Source of the DNA: Patescibacteria group bacterium | Lineage (GTDB): Bacteria > Patescibacteriota > Patescibacteriia > 2-01-FULL-39-33 | Reading direction: 5' to 3' | NCBI GenBank assembly: GCA_041645075.1 | Contig: JBAZQS010000002.1 | Span: forward strand, 693 to 64,692 | DNA: 64,000 nucleotides | Shown: in pieces, positions 5,067 through 61,291 of the stretch | Position numbering within the stretch: position 1 is the stretch's first letter | Layout of the letters: each line of letters starts with the position of its first letter | Position numbers and translations under genes: made by a program | The notes under the pieces: model-generated | The model's input: the letters and a program-made list of their open reading frames with translations, nothing else | The model's database searches: none | What the model was told of the DNA's origin: nothing

Positions 5067-5825
5067 ATGTTGAACATTGACAAGGGTGATTTGGGCCTGA
5101 TAAGAGATTTATTGGGCGCGAAGGGGAGCGCCGAAAGCGATTTTAGGGCTAGAGCGCTTTTATTGTTTAATGATGCAGAAGCATTAAATTCGCACCTTTC
5201 ATCGTGGGGTTGTTATTCCGTCCCCATCGCAATCAGAGCCAATATTATTATGGCGAAAACGGCGAATATATTGCCCAATAAATCGGATTATTACACCTGG
5301 TTAAATCTGCTTTCTAAAATTTTTGATTCGCCAATTCGTCAAAATTCGGCAAACCCAGAGATGATTAGCGGTCTGATTGTCGGGATATTCCAATCCCTTA
5401 AAGCTGGCCGTCGTTTTTTCCAGGGTGAACACGAGGATGAGTTTAGAAGATTTGGATTCTCAATTGTGGCCAAAATGGTTTTGGGGGAATATGGCAAGAG
5501 TTCTAGTTGGTCTCGTTTTGATAAATTGGAAGAAGTAGAAAATGCGGCCAAAGAATGGGTAAGGCAGACCGACTATCTATATAACGTGTCTGCCTTAAAA
5601 CGATTTTCTCCTTTGTTTGAGGAAATTTATCGTAAATTGCCGGGCACCTATTCTGAAATTACGAAGCGCATTTTAAATGGGCTGGTTTACGGATTGTTCG
5701 GCGCCCTGGGCACAGTTTATATGATAAAGCTCCTTTCTTTTATTCCGCTTCTGGAAAATCGTACTTTGTCCGTATCTCGAATATGCGGAATGCTCGACGC
5801 ATTGTCCGACCAAGACAAAGCGTAA
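5067..5825 (+). CDS. Hypothetical protein
   Basis: Long ORF with an AGGAGG RBS at 5055-5062. No recognisable motif. Confidence 0.55.
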   Translation: MLNIDKGDLGLIRDLLGAKGSAESDFRARALLLFNDAEALNSHLSSWGCYSVPIAIRANIIMAKTANILPNKSDYYTWLNLLSKIFDSPIRQNSANPEMISGLIVGIFQSLKAGRRFFQGEHEDEFRRFGFSIVAKMVLGEYGKSSSWSRFDKLEEVENAAKEWVRQTDYLYNVSALKRFSPLFEEIYRKLPGTYSEITKRILNGLVYGLFGALGTVYMIKLLSFIPLLENRTLSVSRICGMLDALSDQDKA

Positions 5826-6008
5826 AAAATAATCAACTCAAAATAATCTCCGTTTCGGCGGAGATTTTTAATTTTTAAAATTTTATCCCCAGTTAGTTGT
5901 TTTTAAATACGGTTTTATGTTATAATAAATTTATAAATTTTAGAAATTCCAGTCCAAAGCATATAATTTGGTCTGGCATGAATTGTATTTGTAATTGTCT
6001 AACCAAAG

Positions 6009-8857: not shown

Positions 8858-9721
8858 ATGAATCCAGAAAAATTTGAGCAAGAACATCTTTCTTTAGAAG
8901 AACAATTTAAAAATCCAGAGATGATAGAACTTGGTGGCAAAACCGTTGAAGTAATTGATATACACCCAGAGATATCAAAGACGGAGGTGCCCGTGGTTGT
9001 TGCTCCGGGATGGGCAGCAACTCCCGAAGTGTTCAAAGATAATATTTTAACGCTAGCTGAATTAGGACGAAGGACAATCTCTGTAAATTCTCCTCACGGA
9101 ATAGAGACCAGCGAGATTGAAGGTTTGCCTGAGGCTGAATTAAGAAAAGTGGCCGCTTTGATGGAAGCACTAAAAGAAAAAGACATCGATCAGATTGATG
9201 CCATAGGCCATTCTGAAGCTGGTATCTATTTAACTATTGCCGCAACCTTGTATCCGGATAAGTTTAGAAATCTTGTCCTTGTTGACCCGGGGGGAATGAT
9301 TGGAAAAGATAAACCAGAATATTTGGCTGCCAGATTTTCCCTGGATATATTAAGACAAACCATTAGAAGTCTAAGAGAACATGAAATTATCAAACCGGCA
9401 ATGAAAGCCTCTTTGGTGGCGGGACGGGCAGTGGGGGGTGCCCCAGCGCAGTCTTTAAGAGAAGTTGTTGCTATTTCTAATACTCAAATTCACGATCTTT
9501 TGCGTGGCTTAAGGGAAAAGGGTATTGGCATATCAATTATTCATGCGGTTGATGATAAAGCCTTTCCCATGGAGAGAGTCCAAAAAATCGCTAAAAAAGA
9601 CCAGCTTAATGGTTTTTATTCAGTCAAAGGGACCCATAATGAATTTTATTTACATCCTGAAAAATATACTCGACTAGCCGAACACGCACTGGCTGCTTTA
9701 GAATCTAGGAAAACTAAATAA
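8858..9721 (+). CDS. Alpha/beta hydrolase fold protein
   Basis: G-H-S-E-A-G nucleophile elbow (GxSxG). Confidence 0.7.
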   Translation: MNPEKFEQEHLSLEEQFKNPEMIELGGKTVEVIDIHPEISKTEVPVVVAPGWAATPEVFKDNILTLAELGRRTISVNSPHGIETSEIEGLPEAELRKVAALMEALKEKDIDQIDAIGHSEAGIYLTIAATLYPDKFRNLVLVDPGGMIGKDKPEYLAARFSLDILRQTIRSLREHEIIKPAMKASLVAGRAVGGAPAQSLREVVAISNTQIHDLLRGLREKGIGISIIHAVDDKAFPMERVQKIAKKDQLNGFYSVKGTHNEFYLHPEKYTRLAEHALAALESRKTK

Positions 9722-9801: not shown

Positions 9802-11910
9802 ATGCCCGATGGCTCGAATCCGTTAAATTCAAATCAAGAAAATCAAAATATGGATTTACCCTTAAACCCAAAACCAAGTAAAGATAATTTAAAAAAATTG
9901 AATTTTTTTTCTAATTATCCAGCCAATAAAGACAACGGCAGCCAAGGCAAAAAAGGGTCCGCCAGCCGGCGGATTAGATTTTTTAGAAAAGAAGTCAGCA
10001 CCATGCAAGACGACATCGCTAACTTAATCGCCAGCAAAAATCGTAAGGCCGGTAAAAAAAATGGCGTATCAAACCAGCGCCGGGATATTCAAAGGAATTT
10101 AACCGAGGTCTATACGGACGGCGACGGCAAAATTCCCGATTTAACCAAATTAGAAAGAATTCAGCGGCCGCTCTGGAAAACCGTTTTGTATGTTTTAATC
10201 GCGGTCTTAGCTGTTTTACTTGTGGCGGCGATTGCCGGTTTTTACTTTTTCAATAATTTAAATAATCAGGATGCCTTTACCAATGAGAAAGTGGCTTTAA
10301 AAATTGAAACGCCGATCGCCATTGTTTCCGGCCAGGAAATGGTTTATACCATCACCATCACCAATAAGGAAAAAGTCAATTTATATAATGCCGAATTGGA
10401 ACTTTTTTATCCTGATAATTTTGAATATGTCTCGGCCGAGCCGGTCGCCCTGGGCGATAAGAAAAATACTTGGGATTTTGCGGTTATTAAAACCGGGGAA
10501 ACCCAGAAAATCCAATTAACCGGAAAAATTTTAGCGCCCCTCAATTCCACCCAAACCATCAAGGGCACGTTAAATTTTAAGCCCTCTAATTTAAACGCGA
10601 CCTTCAAGCAGGAGGCCATTGTTGATGTCGTGGTCTCGGCTTCAAATATTAGTTTGGATGTTACGGGTCCGGAAAAGACCTTAGCCAACCAGAAAGTGGA
10701 ATATGTTATAAAATATAAAAATACCGGCCAAGACGATTTATCCGACTTACAGTTGGTGGCGGAGTATCCGGACGGATTTGTTTTTAATTCTTCCGACCCC
10801 GAGCCCCAAAACGATAATGGCAATAATAATGTGTGGGCGATAAAGGCCTTAAAACAAAATGCGGAAGGGCAATTGAAAATAAAAGGAGATTATTCCGCGG
10901 TCCAAACCGGCGGCAACCGCGATTTCAAAGTTCGCGTTCAATTAAAAAAAGATAATGATTATTATCCGCAAAGCGAAACGTCTTTCGTGACCACGATTAT
11001 TAAAGACCAATTATCTTTGCAGTTGATTATTAACGGTTCGGCCGAAGACCAGCCGATTAATTTTGATGACCTGCTTGTTTATTCTTTGAGTTTTAAAAAT
11101 ACCGGACAGGAAGAACTGAAAGACATAAAAATTTTCGCTAATATGAATTCGCAGATTTTGGATTGGAATACTTTAAAAGACGACCGTCGCGGTTCAAGAT
11201 CGCAGAATTCCATTGTTTGGACGGGCAAAGAAGCGCCCAAATTGTTGAAATTGGCGCCGGGCGAAGAGGGCCAGATTAACTGGAGCATTAGAGTCAAGGA
11301 TTCATCGGTCATTAATGATAAAAATGTAAATAAATTCAATGTAGAGAGTTATATTGAAGGCCGGGCCAGTCAAAGCGGCGAGGCCAGCGGCGAATCAATA
11401 GTAAAAAGCAAAACCGTGGTTAATGCCATAAATTCCGATTTGGGCTTAAATGCTTACGCGCGTTATTATGATGAAGATAATATGGCCTTGGGCGCGGGCC
11501 CGATTCAGCCAACCGTTGGGGAAAAATCCAGTTATAATATCAAATTGGAATTAGCCAATAATTTGCATGATGTTAAGGATTTGCTGGTGGTGGCAACTTT
11601 GCCGAAAGGCGCGGAGTGGGCCGGCCAAGAAACACACACGGCCGGGGATTTGAATTTTAATCAGCAAGCAAAAAAGATAACCTGGACGATTTCTCGTCTC
11701 GCTAAATCAGCCAATAAGGTGGCTGCGACATTTAATGTCGGCCTTAACCCTGGCGATGATGATTTCGGCAAGGTCTTAATTTTAATTTCGGAAATTCAAT
11801 TGACGGGCAAAGACGCGGAAACCGGAGCCGATATCAGCAAGTCATTAAAAGCCATCACCACTTCTTTTGATGACCCGATTTTAGGTCAGGTGAGCGGGAT
11901 AGTGAAATAA
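9802..11910 (+). CDS. Surface protein with DUF11-type repeats, N-terminal TM anchor
   Basis: Repeated segments such as YTITITNKEKVNLYNAELELFYPDNFEYVSAEP and YVIKYKNTGQDDLSDLQLVAEYPDGFVFNSSDP. Confidence 0.6.
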   Translation: MPDGSNPLNSNQENQNMDLPLNPKPSKDNLKKLNFFSNYPANKDNGSQGKKGSASRRIRFFRKEVSTMQDDIANLIASKNRKAGKKNGVSNQRRDIQRNLTEVYTDGDGKIPDLTKLERIQRPLWKTVLYVLIAVLAVLLVAAIAGFYFFNNLNNQDAFTNEKVALKIETPIAIVSGQEMVYTITITNKEKVNLYNAELELFYPDNFEYVSAEPVALGDKKNTWDFAVIKTGETQKIQLTGKILAPLNSTQTIKGTLNFKPSNLNATFKQEAIVDVVVSASNISLDVTGPEKTLANQKVEYVIKYKNTGQDDLSDLQLVAEYPDGFVFNSSDPEPQNDNGNNNVWAIKALKQNAEGQLKIKGDYSAVQTGGNRDFKVRVQLKKDNDYYPQSETSFVTTIIKDQLSLQLIINGSAEDQPINFDDLLVYSLSFKNTGQEELKDIKIFANMNSQILDWNTLKDDRRGSRSQNSIVWTGKEAPKLLKLAPGEEGQINWSIRVKDSSVINDKNVNKFNVESYIEGRASQSGEASGESIVKSKTVVNAINSDLGLNAYARYYDEDNMALGAGPIQPTVGEKSSYNIKLELANNLHDVKDLLVVATLPKGAEWAGQETHTAGDLNFNQQAKKITWTISRLAKSANKVAATFNVGLNPGDDDFGKVLILISEIQLTGKDAETGADISKSLKAITTSFDDPILGQVSGIVK

Positions 11911-11912
11911 TT

Positions 11913-13112
11913 TTGAATATGTTCCAACTCTTGAAACAGTCAAAAAAATCATCAGCGCGGCTGGGCAAGATTAAAACTATCCACGGCGAAATACAGACGC
12001 CGTTTTTTATGCCTGACGCGACCCGGGGTTTTGTCAAGTCAATTGACAATAAAGAGTTGGCGGCGGTAGGCACAGAAGCGATGGTAATAAATACGCTTCA
12101 TTTATATTTACAGCCGGGCACCAAAGTCATCAAAAAAGCCGGCCTGTCTGCCGGAACTTCAGCGCAGGCAGGCGGCGTTCATAAATTTATGAATTGGCCC
12201 GGCTTATTGCTTTCCGACAGCGGCGGTTTTCAGGTTTATTCTTTAATCCACCAAAGCCAGGAGCTCGGTAAGATTTACGATGATAAGGTTATTTTTAAAT
12301 CCTCATTAGACGGTTCAAAACATATTTTAACGCCGGAAAAATCAATTCAAATTCAATTTGATTTGGGCGCGGATATGATGGTTTGCCTTGATGATTGTCC
12401 GCCCAATGATTTTCACAGAAAGGACTTAGAAAAATCAGTCGCCAGAACAATTGTCTGGGCCAAGCGCTGCCGCCGGGAATTTGACAAGCAAATTAAAAAA
12501 AGAAAATTAACCGGTTTATCAAAACCGTTATTATTTAGCGTGATTCAGGGCGGCGCCGAACTGGACTTGAGAAAAAAATGCGCTGAAGCGCTGATTAAAA
12601 TCGGATTTGACGGCTATGGTTTTGGCGCCAGGCCGGTAGATAAAAAAGGCGGATTTTTAGGCGGGGTCTTAAAATTTACCGCTGATTTAATTCCCAAAAA
12701 TGCTTTGCGATTTGCCCTTGGCATCGGCCGGCCCGAAGATATTTTAAGATGCGTTCAAATGGGCTGGGATATGTTTGATTGCGTGATTCCGACCAGAGAA
12801 GCGAGGCATGGACGATTATATGTCTGGAAAAATTCAAAGCTTGTCCCCGACTCCGATCGGGGATTCCAAACTTGTCCTCGCCGAGGCGGGTATTCCAAAT
12901 TTTATTGTACTATAAATATTTCCAATTCAAAATATAAGTCGGATTTTACGCCCATAAACGGCATGAATCTAAAAAATTATTCTAAAGCGTATTTACACCA
13001 CCTCTTTAAAGTTGGCGACCCGTTGGCTATGCGATTGGCCACTTTAAATAACTTAAATTTCTATTCAACATTAATGTCTAATATTAGGCGGGAAATTAAT
13101 GAAGTTTGCTAA
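11913..13112 (+). CDS. tgt: Queuine tRNA-ribosyltransferase (tRNA-guanine transglycosylase), atypical
   Basis: TIHGEIQTPFFMPDATRGF and LLSDSGGFQVYSL core motifs; the C-terminal YSKAYLHHL block is present but the CxCxxC zinc motif is absent. Confidence 0.8.
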   Translation: MNMFQLLKQSKKSSARLGKIKTIHGEIQTPFFMPDATRGFVKSIDNKELAAVGTEAMVINTLHLYLQPGTKVIKKAGLSAGTSAQAGGVHKFMNWPGLLLSDSGGFQVYSLIHQSQELGKIYDDKVIFKSSLDGSKHILTPEKSIQIQFDLGADMMVCLDDCPPNDFHRKDLEKSVARTIVWAKRCRREFDKQIKKRKLTGLSKPLLFSVIQGGAELDLRKKCAEALIKIGFDGYGFGARPVDKKGGFLGGVLKFTADLIPKNALRFALGIGRPEDILRCVQMGWDMFDCVIPTREARHGRLYVWKNSKLVPDSDRGFQTCPRRGGYSKFYCTINISNSKYKSDFTPINGMNLKNYSKAYLHHLFKVGDPLAMRLATLNNLNFYSTLMSNIRREINEVC

Positions 13113-46090: not shown

Positions 46091-49000
46091 ATGAGCAACA
46101 ACTTGGAAAATTTAAATAGCGAACAGCAACAAGCGGTTATCCACGACGATGGACCGCTTTTAATCGTGGCTGGCGCCGGCACGGGCAAAACCACGGTGAT
46201 TACCCAACGCATTTCATATTTGATTAATGAAAAAAAATGCCGGCCCGAGGAAATTTTGGCTTTAACTTTCACGGATAAGGCCGCCGGAGAAATGGAGGAA
46301 AGGGTGGATCGCCTCTTGCCTTACGGCTATGTGGATTTATGGATTTCCACCTTTCATGCTTTTGCCGAACGCATTTTGAAAGACCATGGTTTGGAAATCG
46401 GCCTGCCCAATGATTTTAAACTACTCTCCGCGACCCAGCAATGGCTGATTGTCCGCCAGAATTTAGATAAATTCAATCTTGACTATTATCGTCCGCTTGG
46501 CAATCCCACTAAATTTATTCACGCTTTAATAAAACATTTTTCCCGCGCCAAAGATGAAAATATCAGCGCCCAAGATTATCTTAAATATGTGGAGGATTTA
46601 AAAATGAATTCTGACTCGGCCGAATACGTCAGAACCATTATTGACGAAGAAACCGCTAACCAACTTTCTAAAAAAGAATTAAAAGAGGTTTTGGCGCATG
46701 AAATTTTAAAACAGGAAGAAGTGGCTAATGCCTATCATATTTATCAGCAGTTGTTATTGGATAATAATGCTTTGGATTTCGGTGATTTGATAAATTATTG
46801 CCTCAAATTATTCAGCGAAAGAAAAAATCTGCTCGCCAAATACCGCAGTCAATTCAAATATATTTTGGTAGACGAATTTCAGGATGTTAATTATGCCCAA
46901 TATGAATTAGTAAAAATCATCGGAGCTCCTAAAAATAATATTACCGTTGTTGGAGATGATGATCAATCAATCTATCGGTTCCGCGGGGCATCCATTGCCA
47001 ATATTTTACAGTTCAAAGATGATTACCCGAATCTTAAAGAAATATTTTTGACCGCCAATTACCGCAGCCGGCAGAATATTCTGGACCTGTCTTATAAATT
47101 CATTCAGCAGAATAATCCTTATCGGCTGGAAGTGAAATTAGCCAAAGATAAAAAATTATGCAAAGTATTAAGAGCCGAACAAGAGGGAATAGCCGAGATA
47201 TCGCATCTGCACGGCCACGCTTTGGCCGACGAAGTTAAAATTACGGTGGAAAAAATAATTGAACTGTATAATAAAAGTAAAAACACAAATTGGTCTGATT
47301 TTGCGATTTTGGTGCGTGCCAATGCCAGCGCCAACAATTTTATTTACGCGCTTGAGCGGGCCGATATCCCGTATAATTTTGTGGCTTCCCGGGGGCTTTA
47401 CGCCAAAAACGTGGTCTTGGATATTTTGGCGTATTTAAAATTATTGGATAATTATCATGAGAGTTCGGCCATGTATCGGATATTATCTTTGCCGATTTGG
47501 GGCTTTGACGCCCGCGACATTATCAATCTTAATTATTGGTCCAAGCGCAAGGGCTGGTCTGTTTATGAATCTATGAAGCAAACCGCAATTTTAAATAATA
47601 TTTCTCATGAAGGCAAAAAACGTTTTGAGCAAATTTTAGGCCTGATTGACCGCCACGGCCAGATGATCCGAGAAAACAAAAATACCACGGAAATTATCCA
47701 GGCCTTTCTGATTGATACGGGCTATCTGAAAAATTTAACCGCCATAGACAATCAAATTCATAGAGAGCAATTAAATTATCTAAATCAATTTTATAAAAAA
47801 GTTCAGGAATTTGAATTGGAAACCGACGAAAAAGGCGTAAGAAATTTTTTGGCCTTAATCGGACTGGAGCTTGAATCGGGCGAAGAGGGAACATTGAAAC
47901 AAAACCTGGAAGAGGAGGGGCCGGATGCGGTCAAAATCATGACCGTGCACGCGGCCAAGGGACTGGAATTTAAATATGTTTTTATTGTTAACTTGGTAGA
48001 TAAAAAATTTCCTTCCGTGAGCCAGTCCGAGCCCATTGAGTTGCCGGAAAAATTAATTAAGGAGATTACGGCCGAGGGCGATATCCATTTGCAGGAGGAA
48101 AGGCGATTATTTTATGTGGGTATGACCAGAGCCAAGGAAGGCCTGTATTTTACTTCGGCCGATGATTACGGCGGGAACAGAAAGAAAAAACTATCCAGAT
48201 TTTTAATTGAGCTGTCAGAGGCGGGTTTGGAATTATCTTCCTCCGAATCCCCCCTCCCCTTTACAAGGGGAGGGTTGGGGAGGGGTCTTGTTGGTGAAGA
48301 TAAATTAGACACGCCAAATAAAAAGAAAGAGATAATTGAAAATTTACTCCCGGCTACTTTTTCTTTCAGCCAGATCAGGGCTTTTGAAAGTTGCCCCTAT
48401 CAATATCGTTTTGCTTATATTTTAAAAGTCCCGACCAAGGGCAACCCCCAATTTTCTTTCGGCAAGACCATCCACTCAACATTGCAGAAATATTTCCAAT
48501 TGGCTAATTTGCGAAAAATGAGCCGGCAGAAGAATTTATTCGGCGATGAAACGGCGTCAAAAATTCCCACCGGCGAAGAATTATTAAAAATTTATGAGAC
48601 GTCGTTTATTGACGATTGGTATCCGGACCGCAAAACCAAAGAGCAATATTTTGAAAAAGGGAAAAAAGCGCTTAAAGAGTTTTATGAAAAACACAAAGAT
48701 AATTTGCCCGAGGTTAAATTTTTGGAATACCCGTTTAATTTGAAAATTAAAAATGACGCGGTTTATGCTTTTTTTGGCGTGATTGACCGGGTAGATAAGA
48801 CAAATGAGGGGATAAGGATTGTTGATTACAAAACCGGCCGAGTAAAAAATAAATTAGAGCCGGAAGATAAGGAACAGCTTTTAATCTATCAATTAGCCGC
48901 CCAGGAAGTGATGAAAGAAAAGGTTAAAGAATTAATTTTTTATTATATTGAAGAAAATAAAGAAATGGCATTTTTGGGGACGGACAAAGAGTTGGATAAG

Positions 49001-49117
49001 TTAAAGAAAAAAATTATCGCTATCATAGAGGAAATTAAAAAGGGAAGTTTTCCGCCCAAACCGGGAAATATCTGCCAGTGGTGCGATTTTAATTCCATTT
49101 GCGAGTTTAAGGGATAG
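46091..49117 (+). CDS. UvrD/PcrA-family helicase fused to a C-terminal Cas4/RecB-like PD-(D/E)xK nuclease with an Fe-S Cys cluster
   Basis: AGAGTGKTT motif I, helicase motifs, C-terminal CPYQYRF ... CQWCDFNSIC. In-frame GC palindrome at 48248-48287. Confidence 0.85.
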   Translation: MSNNLENLNSEQQQAVIHDDGPLLIVAGAGTGKTTVITQRISYLINEKKCRPEEILALTFTDKAAGEMEERVDRLLPYGYVDLWISTFHAFAERILKDHGLEIGLPNDFKLLSATQQWLIVRQNLDKFNLDYYRPLGNPTKFIHALIKHFSRAKDENISAQDYLKYVEDLKMNSDSAEYVRTIIDEETANQLSKKELKEVLAHEILKQEEVANAYHIYQQLLLDNNALDFGDLINYCLKLFSERKNLLAKYRSQFKYILVDEFQDVNYAQYELVKIIGAPKNNITVVGDDDQSIYRFRGASIANILQFKDDYPNLKEIFLTANYRSRQNILDLSYKFIQQNNPYRLEVKLAKDKKLCKVLRAEQEGIAEISHLHGHALADEVKITVEKIIELYNKSKNTNWSDFAILVRANASANNFIYALERADIPYNFVASRGLYAKNVVLDILAYLKLLDNYHESSAMYRILSLPIWGFDARDIINLNYWSKRKGWSVYESMKQTAILNNISHEGKKRFEQILGLIDRHGQMIRENKNTTEIIQAFLIDTGYLKNLTAIDNQIHREQLNYLNQFYKKVQEFELETDEKGVRNFLALIGLELESGEEGTLKQNLEEEGPDAVKIMTVHAAKGLEFKYVFIVNLVDKKFPSVSQSEPIELPEKLIKEITAEGDIHLQEERRLFYVGMTRAKEGLYFTSADDYGGNRKKKLSRFLIELSEAGLELSSSESPLPFTRGGLGRGLVGEDKLDTPNKKKEIIENLLPATFSFSQIRAFESCPYQYRFAYILKVPTKGNPQFSFGKTIHSTLQKYFQLANLRKMSRQKNLFGDETASKIPTGEELLKIYETSFIDDWYPDRKTKEQYFEKGKKALKEFYEKHKDNLPEVKFLEYPFNLKIKNDAVYAFFGVIDRVDKTNEGIRIVDYKTGRVKNKLEPEDKEQLLIYQLAAQEVMKEKVKELIFYYIEENKEMAFLGTDKELDKLKKKIIAIIEEIKKGSFPPKPGNICQWCDFNSICEFKG

Positions 49118-49237
49118 CTTGTAGGAATTAGCTTGTAGCTGGTAGTTTTATAAATAAAAAAATATAAATAGCCGATTTTTGGCTATTTTATTTTGGCCAA
49201 ATTTAGAGTAAATAATCATTAAAACTTTTTGGTGGTC

Positions 49238-49266
49238 TTGACAATTTTAGCCACATGTGCTATAAT
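49238..49266 (+). promoter_or_regulatory. Perfect consensus sigma70-type promoter (TTGACA-17-TATAAT)
   Basis: ttgaca attttagccacatgtgc tataat. Confidence 0.65.
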
Positions 49267-49400
49267 GGACATATTAAGAATAAATCAGGACATTACAATA
49301 TTTGAAGTTCCTCACTAGGGCGGTAGTCCAGTATTCTGGGTTTATCGCCGTAGTGAGGACATTTAAAGCAAAATCCAAAGTATCTTGAAAGGAGATTCTA

Positions 49401-49547
49401 ATGAGAATGAAAATCCGAAAGCCAATGGGAACCGTTGTCCTGCTGGTGGCTCTCGCCATCTTCAACTTCTGTGCGGCAAGTTGGATGGGAGTCGCGAGCG
49501 GACTGCTCCTGCTGTCGCTCGTGCTCTACATCTACAGGACTCATTGA
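49401..49547 (+). CDS. 48-aa hydrophobic small membrane peptide (type-I-toxin-like)
   Basis: GAAAGGAG RBS 6 nt before the ATG. MRMKIRKPMGTVVLLVALAIFNFCAASWMGVASGLLLLSLVLYIYRTH. GC-rich codons. Confidence 0.5.
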   Translation: MRMKIRKPMGTVVLLVALAIFNFCAASWMGVASGLLLLSLVLYIYRTH

Positions 49548-50024
49548 GTAGGGGAGCGTCTGAGGTGAAAAACACCAAAAGACGCTCTCCCACAAAACCA
49601 TTTTGCGAATTTAGATTGGCAAAATAGTTTTGGAGAGGACATTACAATATTTGGAGCCATAATTTAGAGGAGGGGGAGAGTATTAGCGCCAATCTATCTA
49701 AAAGGATTCTTATTGGGTTTACTCAATATCAATCCTTTATAAAATAGCGGCGCCTGCCGCTCTCGGTAAATTTCAGGTCACAAACAATTTATTGTAAGGA
49801 CCGGAAGAAATTTAACCATCCTCTATATTATCGCTCTAAATGTTGTATGTTTTTTCCCTTCTTGATGATGGCCATTAACCTGCCTCGGCCACTTACTTCC
49901 ACCCTCCTAAATCCCCGCCCCGACGTCACGTCTGGGCACTTCCCACCGTCTCGCGAGAGCGAGACACAAAAGCGAGTAGAGAATTTTATAAAGAAATTTG
50001 AAGCTCGCTTTTTTCTTTGGTATT

Positions 50025-50134
50025 GTCATTGCGAGAAGGCGTACTCGCCGACGAAGCAATCTAAATTTAAAAACAAGATTGCTTCGTTGGATTACCTCCT
50101 CGCAATGACAATTCGACGGGGCGCAATGACAAAA
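50025..50134. repeat. Palindromic repeat family A, second copy
   Basis: TTGTCATTGCGAG...CTCGCAATGACAA plus a third GCAATGACAA arm; shares the gattgcttcg core with 885-966. Confidence 0.75.
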
Positions 50135-50387
50135 AAAATATTTTTCAACAGCCAAGCCCTTGACAAGCGATTATTTATTGTTTTTGGTTTTATTTGGTGC
50201 TATAATCTTGGGAAGGGAAGGACTTCACATTGGAATATTATAATTGCGCTTTCCTAAATGCTATTTAGGATAATTGCTTTAGCGCAATTTCTCAATATTC
50301 TAATTCGTCCCTCTCCAGATCCCGCCCACTGGGCGGGATCTTTTATTTATGATATAATAAAACATATAAAACATTAAAAAGTAAAAT

Positions 50388-58981: not shown

Positions 58982-59962
58982 TTGATACGGCCATTAAATT
59001 ATATGAAAAAATCCGAAACTTCCATAATTAAACACATTCCTACTTTTCTTGAGTATTGTGAGGTGGAAAAGGGTTTAAGCCCCGTTTCAACCCATAATTA
59101 CCATAATTTCCTTAAGCCGTTTGTGGAATGGCTCAAAATACATAAATTAGACCAAATTAAGCCCCATAATCTTAGTCCGGATCATATTTGGGATTACCGT
59201 CTTTATCTATCTCATAAAAAGGATTATAAAGGTCAGTATATTAAAAAAACGAGCCAAAGTTATTATTTACGAGCATTGCGCAATTTACTTAATTACTTTG
59301 CTAATAGAGATATTATATCTTTATCCGCGGAAAAAATTAAATTACCAAAGTTAACCGACAAAGATAAAAAAATTAAATTTTTAAAATTTGAACAAGTGGA
59401 AAAATTAATGGCCATGCCAGATTCAAATATCATTTCTGGCTTAAGGGATAGAGCCATTTTAGAAATACTATTCTCTACTGGTTTGCGAGTATCCGAATTA
59501 ACTTCGCTTAACGCTAAATTTTTTAATTTACAAGAATTAAAAAAACATCAAAAAGATGGGTTGGAATTTACAATTTATGGAAAGGGTGGAGTGGCTAGGC
59601 CGGTATTTATTTCAGAATGCGCCCTATCTTGGCTTATAAGATATATGGAAAAGAGAAAAGATATGTTCGCTCCCCTATTTATTAATTATCAAAAAAATAA
59701 TAGTGCCGATTGTGACCATCGACTATCTTCTAGGTCGGTCGAATCCATTGTTAAAAAATATGCAGTAATGGCCGGCTTACCCGTGGATGCGACACCACAC
59801 ACCCTGCGGCACAGCTATGCCACCGACTTATTAAATCAAGGAGCGGATTTAAGATCGGTTCAAGAGCTTTTGGGTCATAAAGATATTGGCACGACTCAAA
59901 TTTATACACACGTAACTAATAAAAGACTAAAAGATGTTTATAAAAAATACCATAGCGTATAA
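58982..59962 (+). CDS. Tyrosine recombinase (XerC/XerD-like integrase)
   Basis: HTLRHSYATDLLNQGADLRSVQELLGHKDIGTTQIYTHV with the catalytic Y. Confidence 0.85.
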   Translation: MIRPLNYMKKSETSIIKHIPTFLEYCEVEKGLSPVSTHNYHNFLKPFVEWLKIHKLDQIKPHNLSPDHIWDYRLYLSHKKDYKGQYIKKTSQSYYLRALRNLLNYFANRDIISLSAEKIKLPKLTDKDKKIKFLKFEQVEKLMAMPDSNIISGLRDRAILEILFSTGLRVSELTSLNAKFFNLQELKKHQKDGLEFTIYGKGGVARPVFISECALSWLIRYMEKRKDMFAPLFINYQKNNSADCDHRLSSRSVESIVKKYAVMAGLPVDATPHTLRHSYATDLLNQGADLRSVQELLGHKDIGTTQIYTHVTNKRLKDVYKKYHSV

Positions 59963-60464
59963 AGAAATAAATAAAATAGATATGGGTTTAACTTGGTTAA
60001 CTATAGAAAAATCAATTAAAAAAGAAACTGATTGGCTAAAAAGTAATATTTTCCCTTTTCATTCTGATAAAAATCCACTTAATTTGCCCGATGATACATT
60101 TTACAGATTAATTGCTATTCTAATTGTTTCTGGGCAAGTTAAAACAACTGAATATTTTTATGACAGTAGCAAAATTATTGGATTTAACTCAGTTCATTCT
60201 CCAAATAAAGAACATGGCACCGAATGGCATAATAATTTAATAAATTATTTGCATGATTATTTTGAAAAACAAGGATTTGAAGTATATACCTCGGAGCCAA
60301 TGCTATATTATGGACAAGCTGATTTAAAGGTTATTTCTGAAAAAGTTATATATTTTGAAATTGATACGGTGGGTATATTTAAGTTGTGGGTAAATTTGAA
60401 AAATATGAAAAATATTAATATAATCATTTTAACATCTAATAAAATTATTAAATTTGAATTATGA
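59934..60464 (+). CDS. Hypothetical protein (very AT-rich; start uncertain, perhaps 59982)
   Basis: ORF overlapping the recombinase 3' end. Confidence 0.35.
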   Translation: MFIKNTIAYKEINKIDMGLTWLTIEKSIKKETDWLKSNIFPFHSDKNPLNLPDDTFYRLIAILIVSGQVKTTEYFYDSSKIIGFNSVHSPNKEHGTEWHNNLINYLHDYFEKQGFEVYTSEPMLYYGQADLKVISEKVIYFEIDTVGIFKLWVNLKNMKNINIIILTSNKIIKFEL

Positions 60465-61291
60465 AAGATTTGCCAAACATAAATGAATATGTTAAACACT
60501 TAAATTCAAATAATTACGGTAATTCAACGCTGGTTGCATATTTGACTGGCTTGAACCATTTTAAAAAATATCTTACCATTAAGAATATTAAAAATTTTAA
60601 TGAGATTAATATAGAAGTTATTAATCAATTTATTCAAGAATTAAGTATTTCAAATAATACCGCAAATGTATATATAAACGGCGTCAAAAATTATTTCAAT
60701 TTTTTAGAAAAATATAAAAGTTTAAATTTTAATTTTAAAATTGAAGACATCAAGGAAATTAAGCGTTCAAAAGTGGTTAATAAGGAGATTGATTACGAAC
60801 TCATGACCCGTAGGTTAAATGTAATTAAAAAAAATGATTCCTTATCTTCGAAAAGAGACTATATTATAATACAGCTTGTTATAAAAACAGGGATTAGGAT
60901 CTCTGATTTAATTAAGATAAGGGTTGATCAATTTTCGGATGATAGTATTAAAATAAATGACTATTTTTACTACATTGATCGTGAATTATCAAAAGATATT
61001 AATGATTATTTAAGCCGTTTAGATCATAAGTTCGCGTATCTATTTGTTTCATTCTCGAGAAATATTAAACTTAATGGCGATCAATGCCTAACATCGAGCA
61101 GTGTTGCGAGAATGATCAAAAAAAACTTTGGCAATATTAGTTATAATGGCTTGAAGTCGATTTATTTTAAAAATATAATAGATGATCTTCCAGAGATAGA
61201 AACAACTCATTGTCATAATATTGGTGGCAAAACTATGATTGATGATTTGTACAAAATAATTAACAATGAAGATGAAAAATATTCAAATTAA
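60461..61291 (+). CDS. Divergent tyrosine-recombinase-like protein (possibly inactive paralog)
   Basis: Integrase N-terminal SAM-like region; box-I-like TGIRISDL. No clear HxxR...Y catalytic tail. Confidence 0.45.
   Translation: MKDLPNINEYVKHLNSNNYGNSTLVAYLTGLNHFKKYLTIKNIKNFNEINIEVINQFIQELSISNNTANVYINGVKNYFNFLEKYKSLNFNFKIEDIKEIKRSKVVNKEIDYELMTRRLNVIKKNDSLSSKRDYIIIQLVIKTGIRISDLIKIRVDQFSDDSIKINDYFYYIDRELSKDINDYLSRLDHKFAYLFVSFSRNIKLNGDQCLTSSSVARMIKKNFGNISYNGLKSIYFKNIIDDLPEIETTHCHNIGGKTMIDDLYKIINNEDEKYSN

Follow-up and report, generated by a model that had tools for sequence, protein, structure and literature searches.

The intergenic region described here lies in a 64-kb (64,000-nt) stretch of DNA from a Patescibacteria group bacterium, which was analysed as a whole and is called the window below. 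The region is placed between a gene for a UvrD/PD-(D/E)XK helicase (46091-49117) and a gene for a 126-aa membrane protein that is followed by pheS and pheT. It contains a promoter, a conserved hairpin RNA (H1), a larger structured RNA domain (D2) and, between these two, an open reading frame (ORF) for a 48-aa peptide that we call ORF48. An initial annotation, made from the letters of the DNA, had singled out the stretch from the promoter to the far end of ORF48 and its flanking repeats as a small hydrophobic peptide gene, and had likened it to type I toxin loci or to a mobile mini-cassette.

The genome is of Buchananbacteria-like type, its source being a Patescibacterium near Candidatus Buchananbacteria. 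Relatives of the locus were gathered through homologues of the helicase and through homologues of the 126-aa membrane protein. The neighbours recur across these loci, with the helicase (or MacB) on one side and the membrane protein with pheST on the other. The promoter and H1 are found together at nine loci, namely the window, L002, L003, L006, L086, L088, L090, L092 and L097. L001 and L082 represent the same population as the window, from which each differs by 2 single-nucleotide polymorphisms, with 0 of these within the locus. The nearest relative is L002 (helicase 91% identical), where a gap of exactly 100 N (5806-5905 of CAYIRS010000006.1) begins inside H1 and stops inside D2. Because this scaffold gap covers exactly the stretch in question, L002 is silent on the conservation of ORF48. 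The gap may reflect strain heterogeneity in the sequence carried between the two RNA domains.

Promoter and structured RNA domains

The features of the locus in the window are as follows.

49238..49266, + strand: sigma70-type promoter, TTGACA-17-TATAAT with a TGn extended -10 (promoter scan, 12/12)
49288..49307, + strand: direct repeat copy 1 (GGACATTACAATATTTGAAG), whose 3' half is the 5' strand of the H1 basal stem
49301..49367, + strand: H1, conserved hairpin RNA with the core GGCGGUA..CCAG-UAUU-CUGG..UAUCGCC (covariance model and fold)
49368..49636, + strand: lineage-specific cargo block of 5' untranslated region, ORF48 and two hairpins, an insert at the H1/D2 junction relative to L006
49401..49547, + strand: ORF48, a 48-aa hydrophobic ORF with AAGGAG 6 nt upstream of the ATG; foreign codons; orphan
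49548..49593, + strand: GC-rich hairpin (GGGGAGCGTCT...AGACGCTCTCCC) that closes the cargo; not a terminator (inverted repeat and fold)
49593..49632, + strand: terminal hairpin whose ends are conserved (CAAAACCATTTTGC / GCAAAATAGTTTTG), a shorter version of the 43-85-nt AAC...GTT hairpins at the cargo ends of relatives (inverted repeat)
49637..49656, + strand: direct repeat copy 2 (GGACATTACAATATTTGGAG), which supplies the 5' side of the helix that closes D2
49643..49847, + strand: D2, structured RNA domain with a closing helix of 21-32 bp (inverted repeat and RNAalifold covariation)
49968..50012, + strand: probable intrinsic terminator, an extended stem followed by UUUUUU (RNA fold)

The perfect consensus promoter that had been reported at this position is indeed present. 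TTGACA (49238-49243) and TATAAT (49261-49266) are separated by a 17-nt spacer, and the full score of 12/12 in the promoter scan is accompanied by a TGn extended -10. The exact arrangement TTGACA-N17-TATAAT is found once in the window, for which about 0.03 occurrences would be expected by chance according to our own arithmetic. Judging from its position, transcription would start near 49273. The hexamers are kept and the spacer has diverged in L002, L003, L006, L086, L088, L090, L092 and L097 (L088 has TATACT), and the distance from the promoter to the H1 core is 78-81 nt in seven of the nine loci, the window included.

The 49-nt hairpin noted earlier at 49310-49358 is likewise present and proves to be longer, extending from 49301 to 49367, with a predicted fold of -37.9 kcal/mol (z = -7.8). 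Its core, GGCG(G/U)UA ... UAUCGCC, is near-invariant across loci; the apical stem alternates among CCAG/CUGG, CUGG/CCAG and GCAG/CUGC, and the basal stems are wholly different in sequence. A covariance model built for H1 scores 55-81 bits on the + strand of these loci versus 24-35 bits on the - strand, a difference of about 40 bits in favour of +, and the match in the window (49300-49369) scores 75.9 versus 34.9 bits. Within 1.1 Mb of DNA from 88 sources, the model matches these loci only. Pairing is seen in 85.6% of the cells of the model alignment versus 40-60% in controls with slid partners, double changes occur at 15 of 27 pairs, and none of 500 shuffles reached the observed values. As the alignment is fitted to the model and comprises eight sequences, we regard the covariation evidence for H1 as solid but not deep. 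Searches of phage, plasmid and IMG/VR collections for the locus or for the H1 core gave no match. In L006 and L090, the promoter and H1 are present with no ORF behind them.

The closing helix of D2 is formed by a 32-nt inverted repeat (49643-49674 / 49816-49847; …UUUAGAGGAGGG / CCAUCCUCUAUA…) and encloses an internal CAGGUCACAAA hairpin. The domain is also found in L003, L006, L086, L090, L092 and L093, and in L002 as the 3' half only (5906-6006), which lies behind the gap. The closing helix covaries according to RNAalifold (seven loci), and G-U pairs favour the + strand throughout the structured domains. A minus-strand small RNA at 49741-49841 was considered, prompted by the 96% identity of this stretch to L002 and by a minus-strand terminator-like site. 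We dropped this candidate since these nucleotides make up the 3' half of D2 and since the substitution in L002 keeps a G-U pair on the + strand only.

Relatives have a further domain, D3, whose closing helix (GAURCGAAGG... / ...UUCGUAUC) consists of 22 predicted pairs, 12 of them with compensatory changes. The window has neither D3 nor the ORF for a zinc-ribbon protein that accompanies it elsewhere, and a GC-rich tail stands behind D2 instead. This protein (M.VQCC.C...G.W...SHG.CP.C, 52-63 aa) is often encoded directly behind D3 in relatives (L090 6539-6727, L006 9590-9757, L093 1434-1625, L092 ~5240-5412 and L003 ~12069-12227) and belongs to no Pfam family above threshold.

A transcript of ~740 nt that ends at the predicted terminator at 49968-50012 is plausible on the basis of the modelled fold. 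The terminator scan found no + strand terminator between 49189 and 50316; the structure at 49968-50012 is absent from its list because the loop is longer than 8 nt. Rfam 15, whose families include transfer-messenger RNA (tmRNA), RNase P, 6S, SRP, T-box, ROOL, GOLLD, OLE and raiA, was matched neither by the window nor by nine relatives when the gathering threshold was applied; permissive E values of up to 1-10 over the locus (window, L090 and L006) returned noise only, and ARAGORN found no tmRNA.

The 20-bp direct repeats that flank H1 and ORF48 also withstand scrutiny. The two copies agree at 19 of 20 positions, no further copy with three or fewer mismatches is present in the window, and 0 of 100 shuffles yielded at least two matches. 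The half-copy proposed at 49267-49278 does not hold up in the same way, as it is weak (8 of 12 positions) and is not kept in L002. The 3' half of the repeat (AUUUGRAG) provides the 5' side of a basal helix, in H1 for copy 1 and in D2 for copy 2. The 5' half (GGACAUUACAA) fits the motif GnAcAUUAmAA, which is located 12-20 nt before H1 in nearly all loci and recurs directly behind the terminal hairpins described below (window copy 2, L086, L092, L093 and L003). On these comparisons, we judge that the repeats are a junction motif of the RNA platform, marking the 5' flanks of H1 and D2, and not transposon ends.

This bears on whether the segment might be a miniature inverted-repeat transposable element (MITE) or an insertion sequence (IS), in which case a 329-bp element would have duplicated its target site to give the repeats. 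A discrete segment between two direct repeats is what such an event would leave, yet we consider this explanation very improbable. Terminal inverted repeats are lacking, with TTCCTCAC... at one end of the segment and ...GTTTTGGAGA at the other, and a second copy was found neither in the window nor in 100 loci nor in the phage, plasmid and IMG/VR collections. Moreover, the segment includes H1, which is ancestral and also occurs in cargo-free relatives, and the repeats therefore do not bound the inserted DNA. An IS200/IS605-type insertion 3' of TTAC was also considered; the neighbourhood of the locus showed neither a Y1 transposase nor TnpB. Two other leads concerning the repeat were set aside. 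An exact scan of Joint Genome Institute (JGI) metagenomes gave three matches that lack flanking similarity and were attributed to chance, and a dif/Xer site was rejected given that no dif-like arm symmetry was apparent by eye.

Contents of the slot between H1 and D2

The junction of H1 and D2 is where the loci differ. When the window is aligned with L006 by nhmmer, homology is confined to the flanks (49255-49351 with 9084-9176, and 49649-49863 with 9199-9438), between which there are 297 nt in the window (49352-49648) versus 22 nt in L006. H1 is directly joined to D2 in L090, where the slot is empty. L006 and L092 are ~92% identical around the junction and are distinguished by a single clean 160-nt indel exactly between H1 and D2, the slot of L092 holding a non-coding remnant and a hairpin only. 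Other relatives carry genes at this position: a pair of paralogous ORFs in L086 (148 and 201 aa, with GC of 56% and 52%, versus ~36% for native genes), four small ORFs spaced by 76-84-nt hairpin repeats in L003, and a 282-aa membrane ORF in L093. The number of cargo ORFs is 0 in L006 and L090, 1 in the window, 2 in L086 and 4 in L003, and all are in one orientation, each with its own ribosome-binding site.

A different GC-rich gene is located behind D2 in L002 (6057-6641) and codes for a multi-pass membrane protein of 194 aa in which Pfam recognises no domain. Its family comprises at least 274 clusters, with identities of 60-82% among many Patescibacteria and some Acidobacteria, and the gene is clearly a horizontal acquisition. 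Such identity across these hosts is unusually high for an uncharacterised protein. Elsewhere, members of the family stand in unrelated contexts (P0061 and P0049), and thus the platform does not travel with this gene.

Every cargo block ends in a module of two hairpins. The first is a GC-rich GGGAG...CUCCC hairpin with a covarying stem, which L003 (three times), L086 and L093 have at the corresponding position. The second, which comes next, is an imperfect hairpin of 42-85 nt with the 5' end C(C)AAAAC.AU.UUGC, the 3' end GCAARAUAGUUKUGG and a variable middle. Copies of the module are present in the window (49548-49593 plus 49593-49632), three times in L003 and once each in L086, L092 and L093, and the terminal hairpins are missing from cargo-free loci. 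In the relatives, these terminal hairpins are located at 10474-10549, 11179-11254 and 11547-11630 of L003, 1993-2077 of L086, 4740-4821 of L092 and 973-1015 of L093. Hairpins with at least 14 of 16 arm pairs and with ...CTCCC before them occur only at this locus in the sampled DNA. The terminal hairpins of L003 and L092 are ~85% identical, whereas their H1 elements are only ~60% alike, according to our own alignment by hand. These hairpins fold better on the sense strand, by way of G-U pairs, which suggests that they may have a role at the RNA level. In the window, the first stem of the module (49548-49593) is followed by CACAAAACC in place of a U-tract and is not listed by the terminator scan, and thus the terminator-like hairpin that had been described behind the ORF cannot be upheld as such.

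The suggestion of a mobile mini-cassette is on the right track as far as the cassette is concerned. Present in some loci and absent from others, the ORF block is inserted at a single, exactly defined junction of a conserved locus, and the slot holds other foreign ORFs in relatives, each with the same hairpin module at its end. The promoter and H1 are, by contrast, parts of the platform and not of the cassette.

ORF48 itself has the features of a small hydrophobic peptide gene that were first ascribed to it. The Shine-Dalgarno sequence AAGGAG is 6 nt from the ATG, and the product has a grand average of hydropathy (GRAVY) of +1.15, a run of 36 consecutive mostly apolar residues and a basic N-terminus. 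The ribosome-binding region is predicted to be unstructured (-3.9 kcal/mol over 51 nt). The GC content, described as far above the local background, is so relative to flanking intergenic DNA (53% versus 29-34%) but not relative to the window, over whose mean it lies by ~1.6 standard deviations and in which 38 other stretches have a GC content of at least 52%.

The true outlier is codon usage, not GC content. A score of the codon adaptation index (CAI) type is 0.41 for ORF48 versus 0.71±0.06 for native genes, and 0 of 809 native 48-codon windows are equally low. All nine Leu codons are CTG or CTC, which together make up 18% of the Leu codons in the long genes of the genome. GC is highest at the third codon position and lowest at the second (GC3 0.71 > GC1 0.52 > GC2 0.40), corresponding to 25, 19 and 34 of 48 at the three positions (chi-square ~9.6 with 2 degrees of freedom, by our own arithmetic). 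Because its GC content is significantly periodic by codon position, ORF48 is, or was, coding sequence from a GC-richer source.

Given these findings, it is quite unlikely that there is no gene here and that the GC-rich stretch is an expansion segment of a large non-coding RNA with an accidental ORF. The region is highly structured, ORF48 is an orphan, and the slot of L092 holds no more than a non-coding remnant and hairpin, all of which would agree with such an arrangement. However, the differences among codon positions are the mark of coding sequence derived from a donor richer in GC, the consensus AAGGAG is correctly spaced in an unstructured context, and real genes occupy the same slot in L086, L093 and L003.

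Searches for homologues of ORF48 were extensive. A word-indexed search of 5.8 billion proteins returned one match, a 40-aa call of ORF48's own sequence, and phmmer over 1.84 billion representatives returned the self-match together with five multi-stretch matches inside proteins of 786-1989 aa. Pfam gave sub-threshold hits only (DUF2842, E = 0.013, 16 bits versus a cut-off of 25), and neither PADLOC nor a tblastn search of plasmids gave a match. ORF48 is not at the same slot in L006, L090, L092, L086 or L003. The ORF is therefore not conserved in the type of search that the initial annotation had proposed, an outcome which that annotation itself had named as speaking against its proposal.

These results also bear on the possibility of a type I toxin-antitoxin locus, in which ORF48 would code for a toxin that damages membranes, with an antisense RNA restraining the structured mRNA. 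A very hydrophobic 48-aa product with a basic N-terminus, encoded behind a strong promoter on a heavily folded transcript (z = -6.9), is what might be expected of such a locus, and repeats, which are also present here, are found in some type I toxin-antitoxin systems. Nevertheless, we give this possibility very little credence. The minus strand has no promoter-like site (at least 9/12) in 49245-49660, in or beside ORF48, where an antisense promoter was to be sought, although a consensus scan could miss an atypical one. No homologue exists in the two protein collections just named, no Pfam or PADLOC toxin family is matched, and the ribosome-binding region is open. The strong fold is due to H1 and to the pair of hairpins at the cargo end, elements that are kept beside unrelated cargo in relatives, and the promoter and hairpin exist without the ORF in L006 and L090. 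The locus is thus similar to hok/sok, fst/RNAII and tisB/istR in its small hydrophobic ORF, strong promoter and heavily structured transcript, and differs from them in its lack of an antisense signal, of a family and of ORF conservation, in its exposed ribosome-binding site, and in that its structured elements are parts of a platform found also where the ORF is absent. An orphan ORF of 48 aa such as this one should not carry a toxin label in annotations.

Whether ORF48 yields a working membrane peptide or is what is left of a decayed gene we consider an even choice. Its ribosome-binding site is accessible, so that translation into such a peptide may occur; decay of cargo is, however, evident from the remnants in L092 and L003, and ORF48 may equally be a truncated leftover.

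Interpretation and comparison with known systems

On the basis of these characteristics, we consider it moderately probable that the flagged segment is a foreign cargo cassette, possibly decayed, within a conserved promoter-RNA platform that follows an integron-like logic. The segment would be the 5' half of a clade-specific locus of Buchananbacteria-like Patescibacteria. A transcript of ~740 nt would begin at the perfect promoter and would contain H1 first and then D2, to which relatives would add D3 and often the zinc-ribbon gene. ORF48, the GC-rich hairpin and the AAC...GTT hairpin (49368-49636) would be inserted cargo that lies outside the conserved RNA. More generally, the slot between H1 and D2 would collect promoterless, horizontally acquired ORFs, each closed by the two-hairpin module, and ORF48 would be the single small cargo of this lineage. 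From the arrangement of the locus we infer that cargo is expressed from the platform promoter and that it arrives by a site-directed process. Candidate roles for H1, D2 and D3 include RNA stability, processive antitermination and service as a recombination scaffold.

Several points weigh against this interpretation and call for appropriate caution. No recombinase is linked to the locus, the tyrosine recombinases of the window being Xer-like and 9-11 kb away, and no excised or empty-site form of the window's cassette was seen. Expression is read from sequence only. The comparison is shallow, with 8-9 distinct loci, and for ORF48 it has no depth at all, since L001 and L082 belong to the same population and L002 is gapped there. 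In addition, the structure counts for H1 derive from a model-fitted alignment of eight sequences and thus lean towards structure.

A further proposal is that the locus is a previously undescribed gene-capture platform of Patescibacteria, in which the promoter and H1 express acquired promoterless cassettes within a new multi-domain H1-D2-D3 RNA, as a functional analogue of integrons that lacks the integron integrase. The cassettes would enter at one defined junction and would each close with the two-hairpin module and its AAC...GTT termini. We offer this tentatively, as a possibility that is on balance rather unlikely. Insertion into such a platform might proceed through a trans-acting Xer-like recombinase or through an RNA-level mechanism.

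In an integron, a Pc promoter and an attI site precede promoterless cassettes, each of which terminates in a folded attC site. The likeness of the locus to integrons has several aspects. One strong upstream promoter would serve an array of 0 to at least 4 promoterless ORFs of foreign composition, which have their own ribosome-binding sites and a single orientation. An imperfect hairpin of 42-85 nt with the ends 5' ...AAC / 3' GTT... and a variable middle stands behind each ORF, and the content varies between close relatives. The differences are equally conspicuous. An integron integrase is missing: the highest-scoring tyrosine recombinase reaches 94.6 bits versus a cut-off of 265 (TIGR02249), is Xer-like and is 9 kb off. 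Integron cassette arrays without an integrase are known as CALIN arrays. The terminal hairpins end in CCAAAAC and GTTTTGG/GTTGTGG, which depart from the attC consensus RYYYAAC/GTTRRRY, though AAC and GTT are in the integron orientation. The hairpins form the better fold on the sense strand, conserved structured RNA domains enclose the array, and the host is a Patescibacterium.

The Xer-like tyrosine recombinase genes of the window are located at 58982-59962 and 60461-61291, 9-11 kb downstream of the locus. Both fall below the XerC/XerD equivalog cut-offs, and the second matches through its N-terminal domain only.

The locus can also be compared with the large 'ornate' bacterial non-coding RNAs ROOL, GOLLD, OLE and raiA, to which no function has been assigned. 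Like them, it gives a strongly promoted intergenic RNA, 400-600 nt in relatives, that has several domains and is closed by long helices that covary. It differs from these RNAs in having no Rfam 15 match, in tolerating or hosting ORF insertions between its domains, and in being confined, as sampled, to one Buchananbacteria-like subclade. H1 is furthermore reminiscent of the HK022 put and Bacillus EAR elements, promoter-proximal RNAs with an effect on RNA polymerase or RNA stability, given that it is ~70 nt long, is fixed at about +28 from a strong promoter and is placed ahead of a hairpin-rich operon. That H1 might function in the manner of these elements is purely conjectural.

Patescibacteria, also known as the candidate phyla radiation (CPR), have tiny genomes and depend on hosts, and their gene gain and gene expression are poorly understood. 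If our interpretation is true, a fixed and strongly promoted slot that collects foreign genes for membrane and secreted proteins would provide a concrete mechanism of adaptive gene flux in these organisms, as well as a ready-made expression site for engineering them. The RNA composed of promoter-proximal hairpin, D2 and D3 is absent from Rfam and can be considered a candidate for a new class of structured RNA. The interest of the locus lies chiefly in this combination of a conserved, unannotated RNA platform and a cargo slot in an under-studied phylum.

Neighbouring elements

Three further elements were noted beside the locus. A long palindromic element at 50022-50112 (ATTGTCATTGCGAGAAGG ... 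CCTCCTCGCAATGACAAT, with inner CCGACGAAGCAATCT/AGATTGCTTCGTTGG) has related copies in L018 and L009 and looks like a dispersed hairpin repeat.

A second conserved unit (50170-50345) is located directly upstream of the gene for the 126-aa membrane protein and pheST. It consists of a promoter (GTGCTATAAT, 50197-50206), the sequence ...GGGAAGG... and then an intrinsic terminator (50317-50341) of the form CCYTCTCTAAATCCCGCC-loop-GGCGGGATTT. Counterparts are present in L090 (6780-6945), L088 (6770-6935), L086 (2430-2560), L006 (10050-10240), L003 (12880-13040) and L095 (~5893). This unit looks like a separate, attenuator-type leader; its Rfam rnk_pseudo matches are weak and terminator-driven.

Finally, on the other side of the locus, the sequence TAGCTTGTAG (49115-49138) is present twice, 14 nt apart, from the helicase stop codon on, and it is kept in L002 with substitutions.

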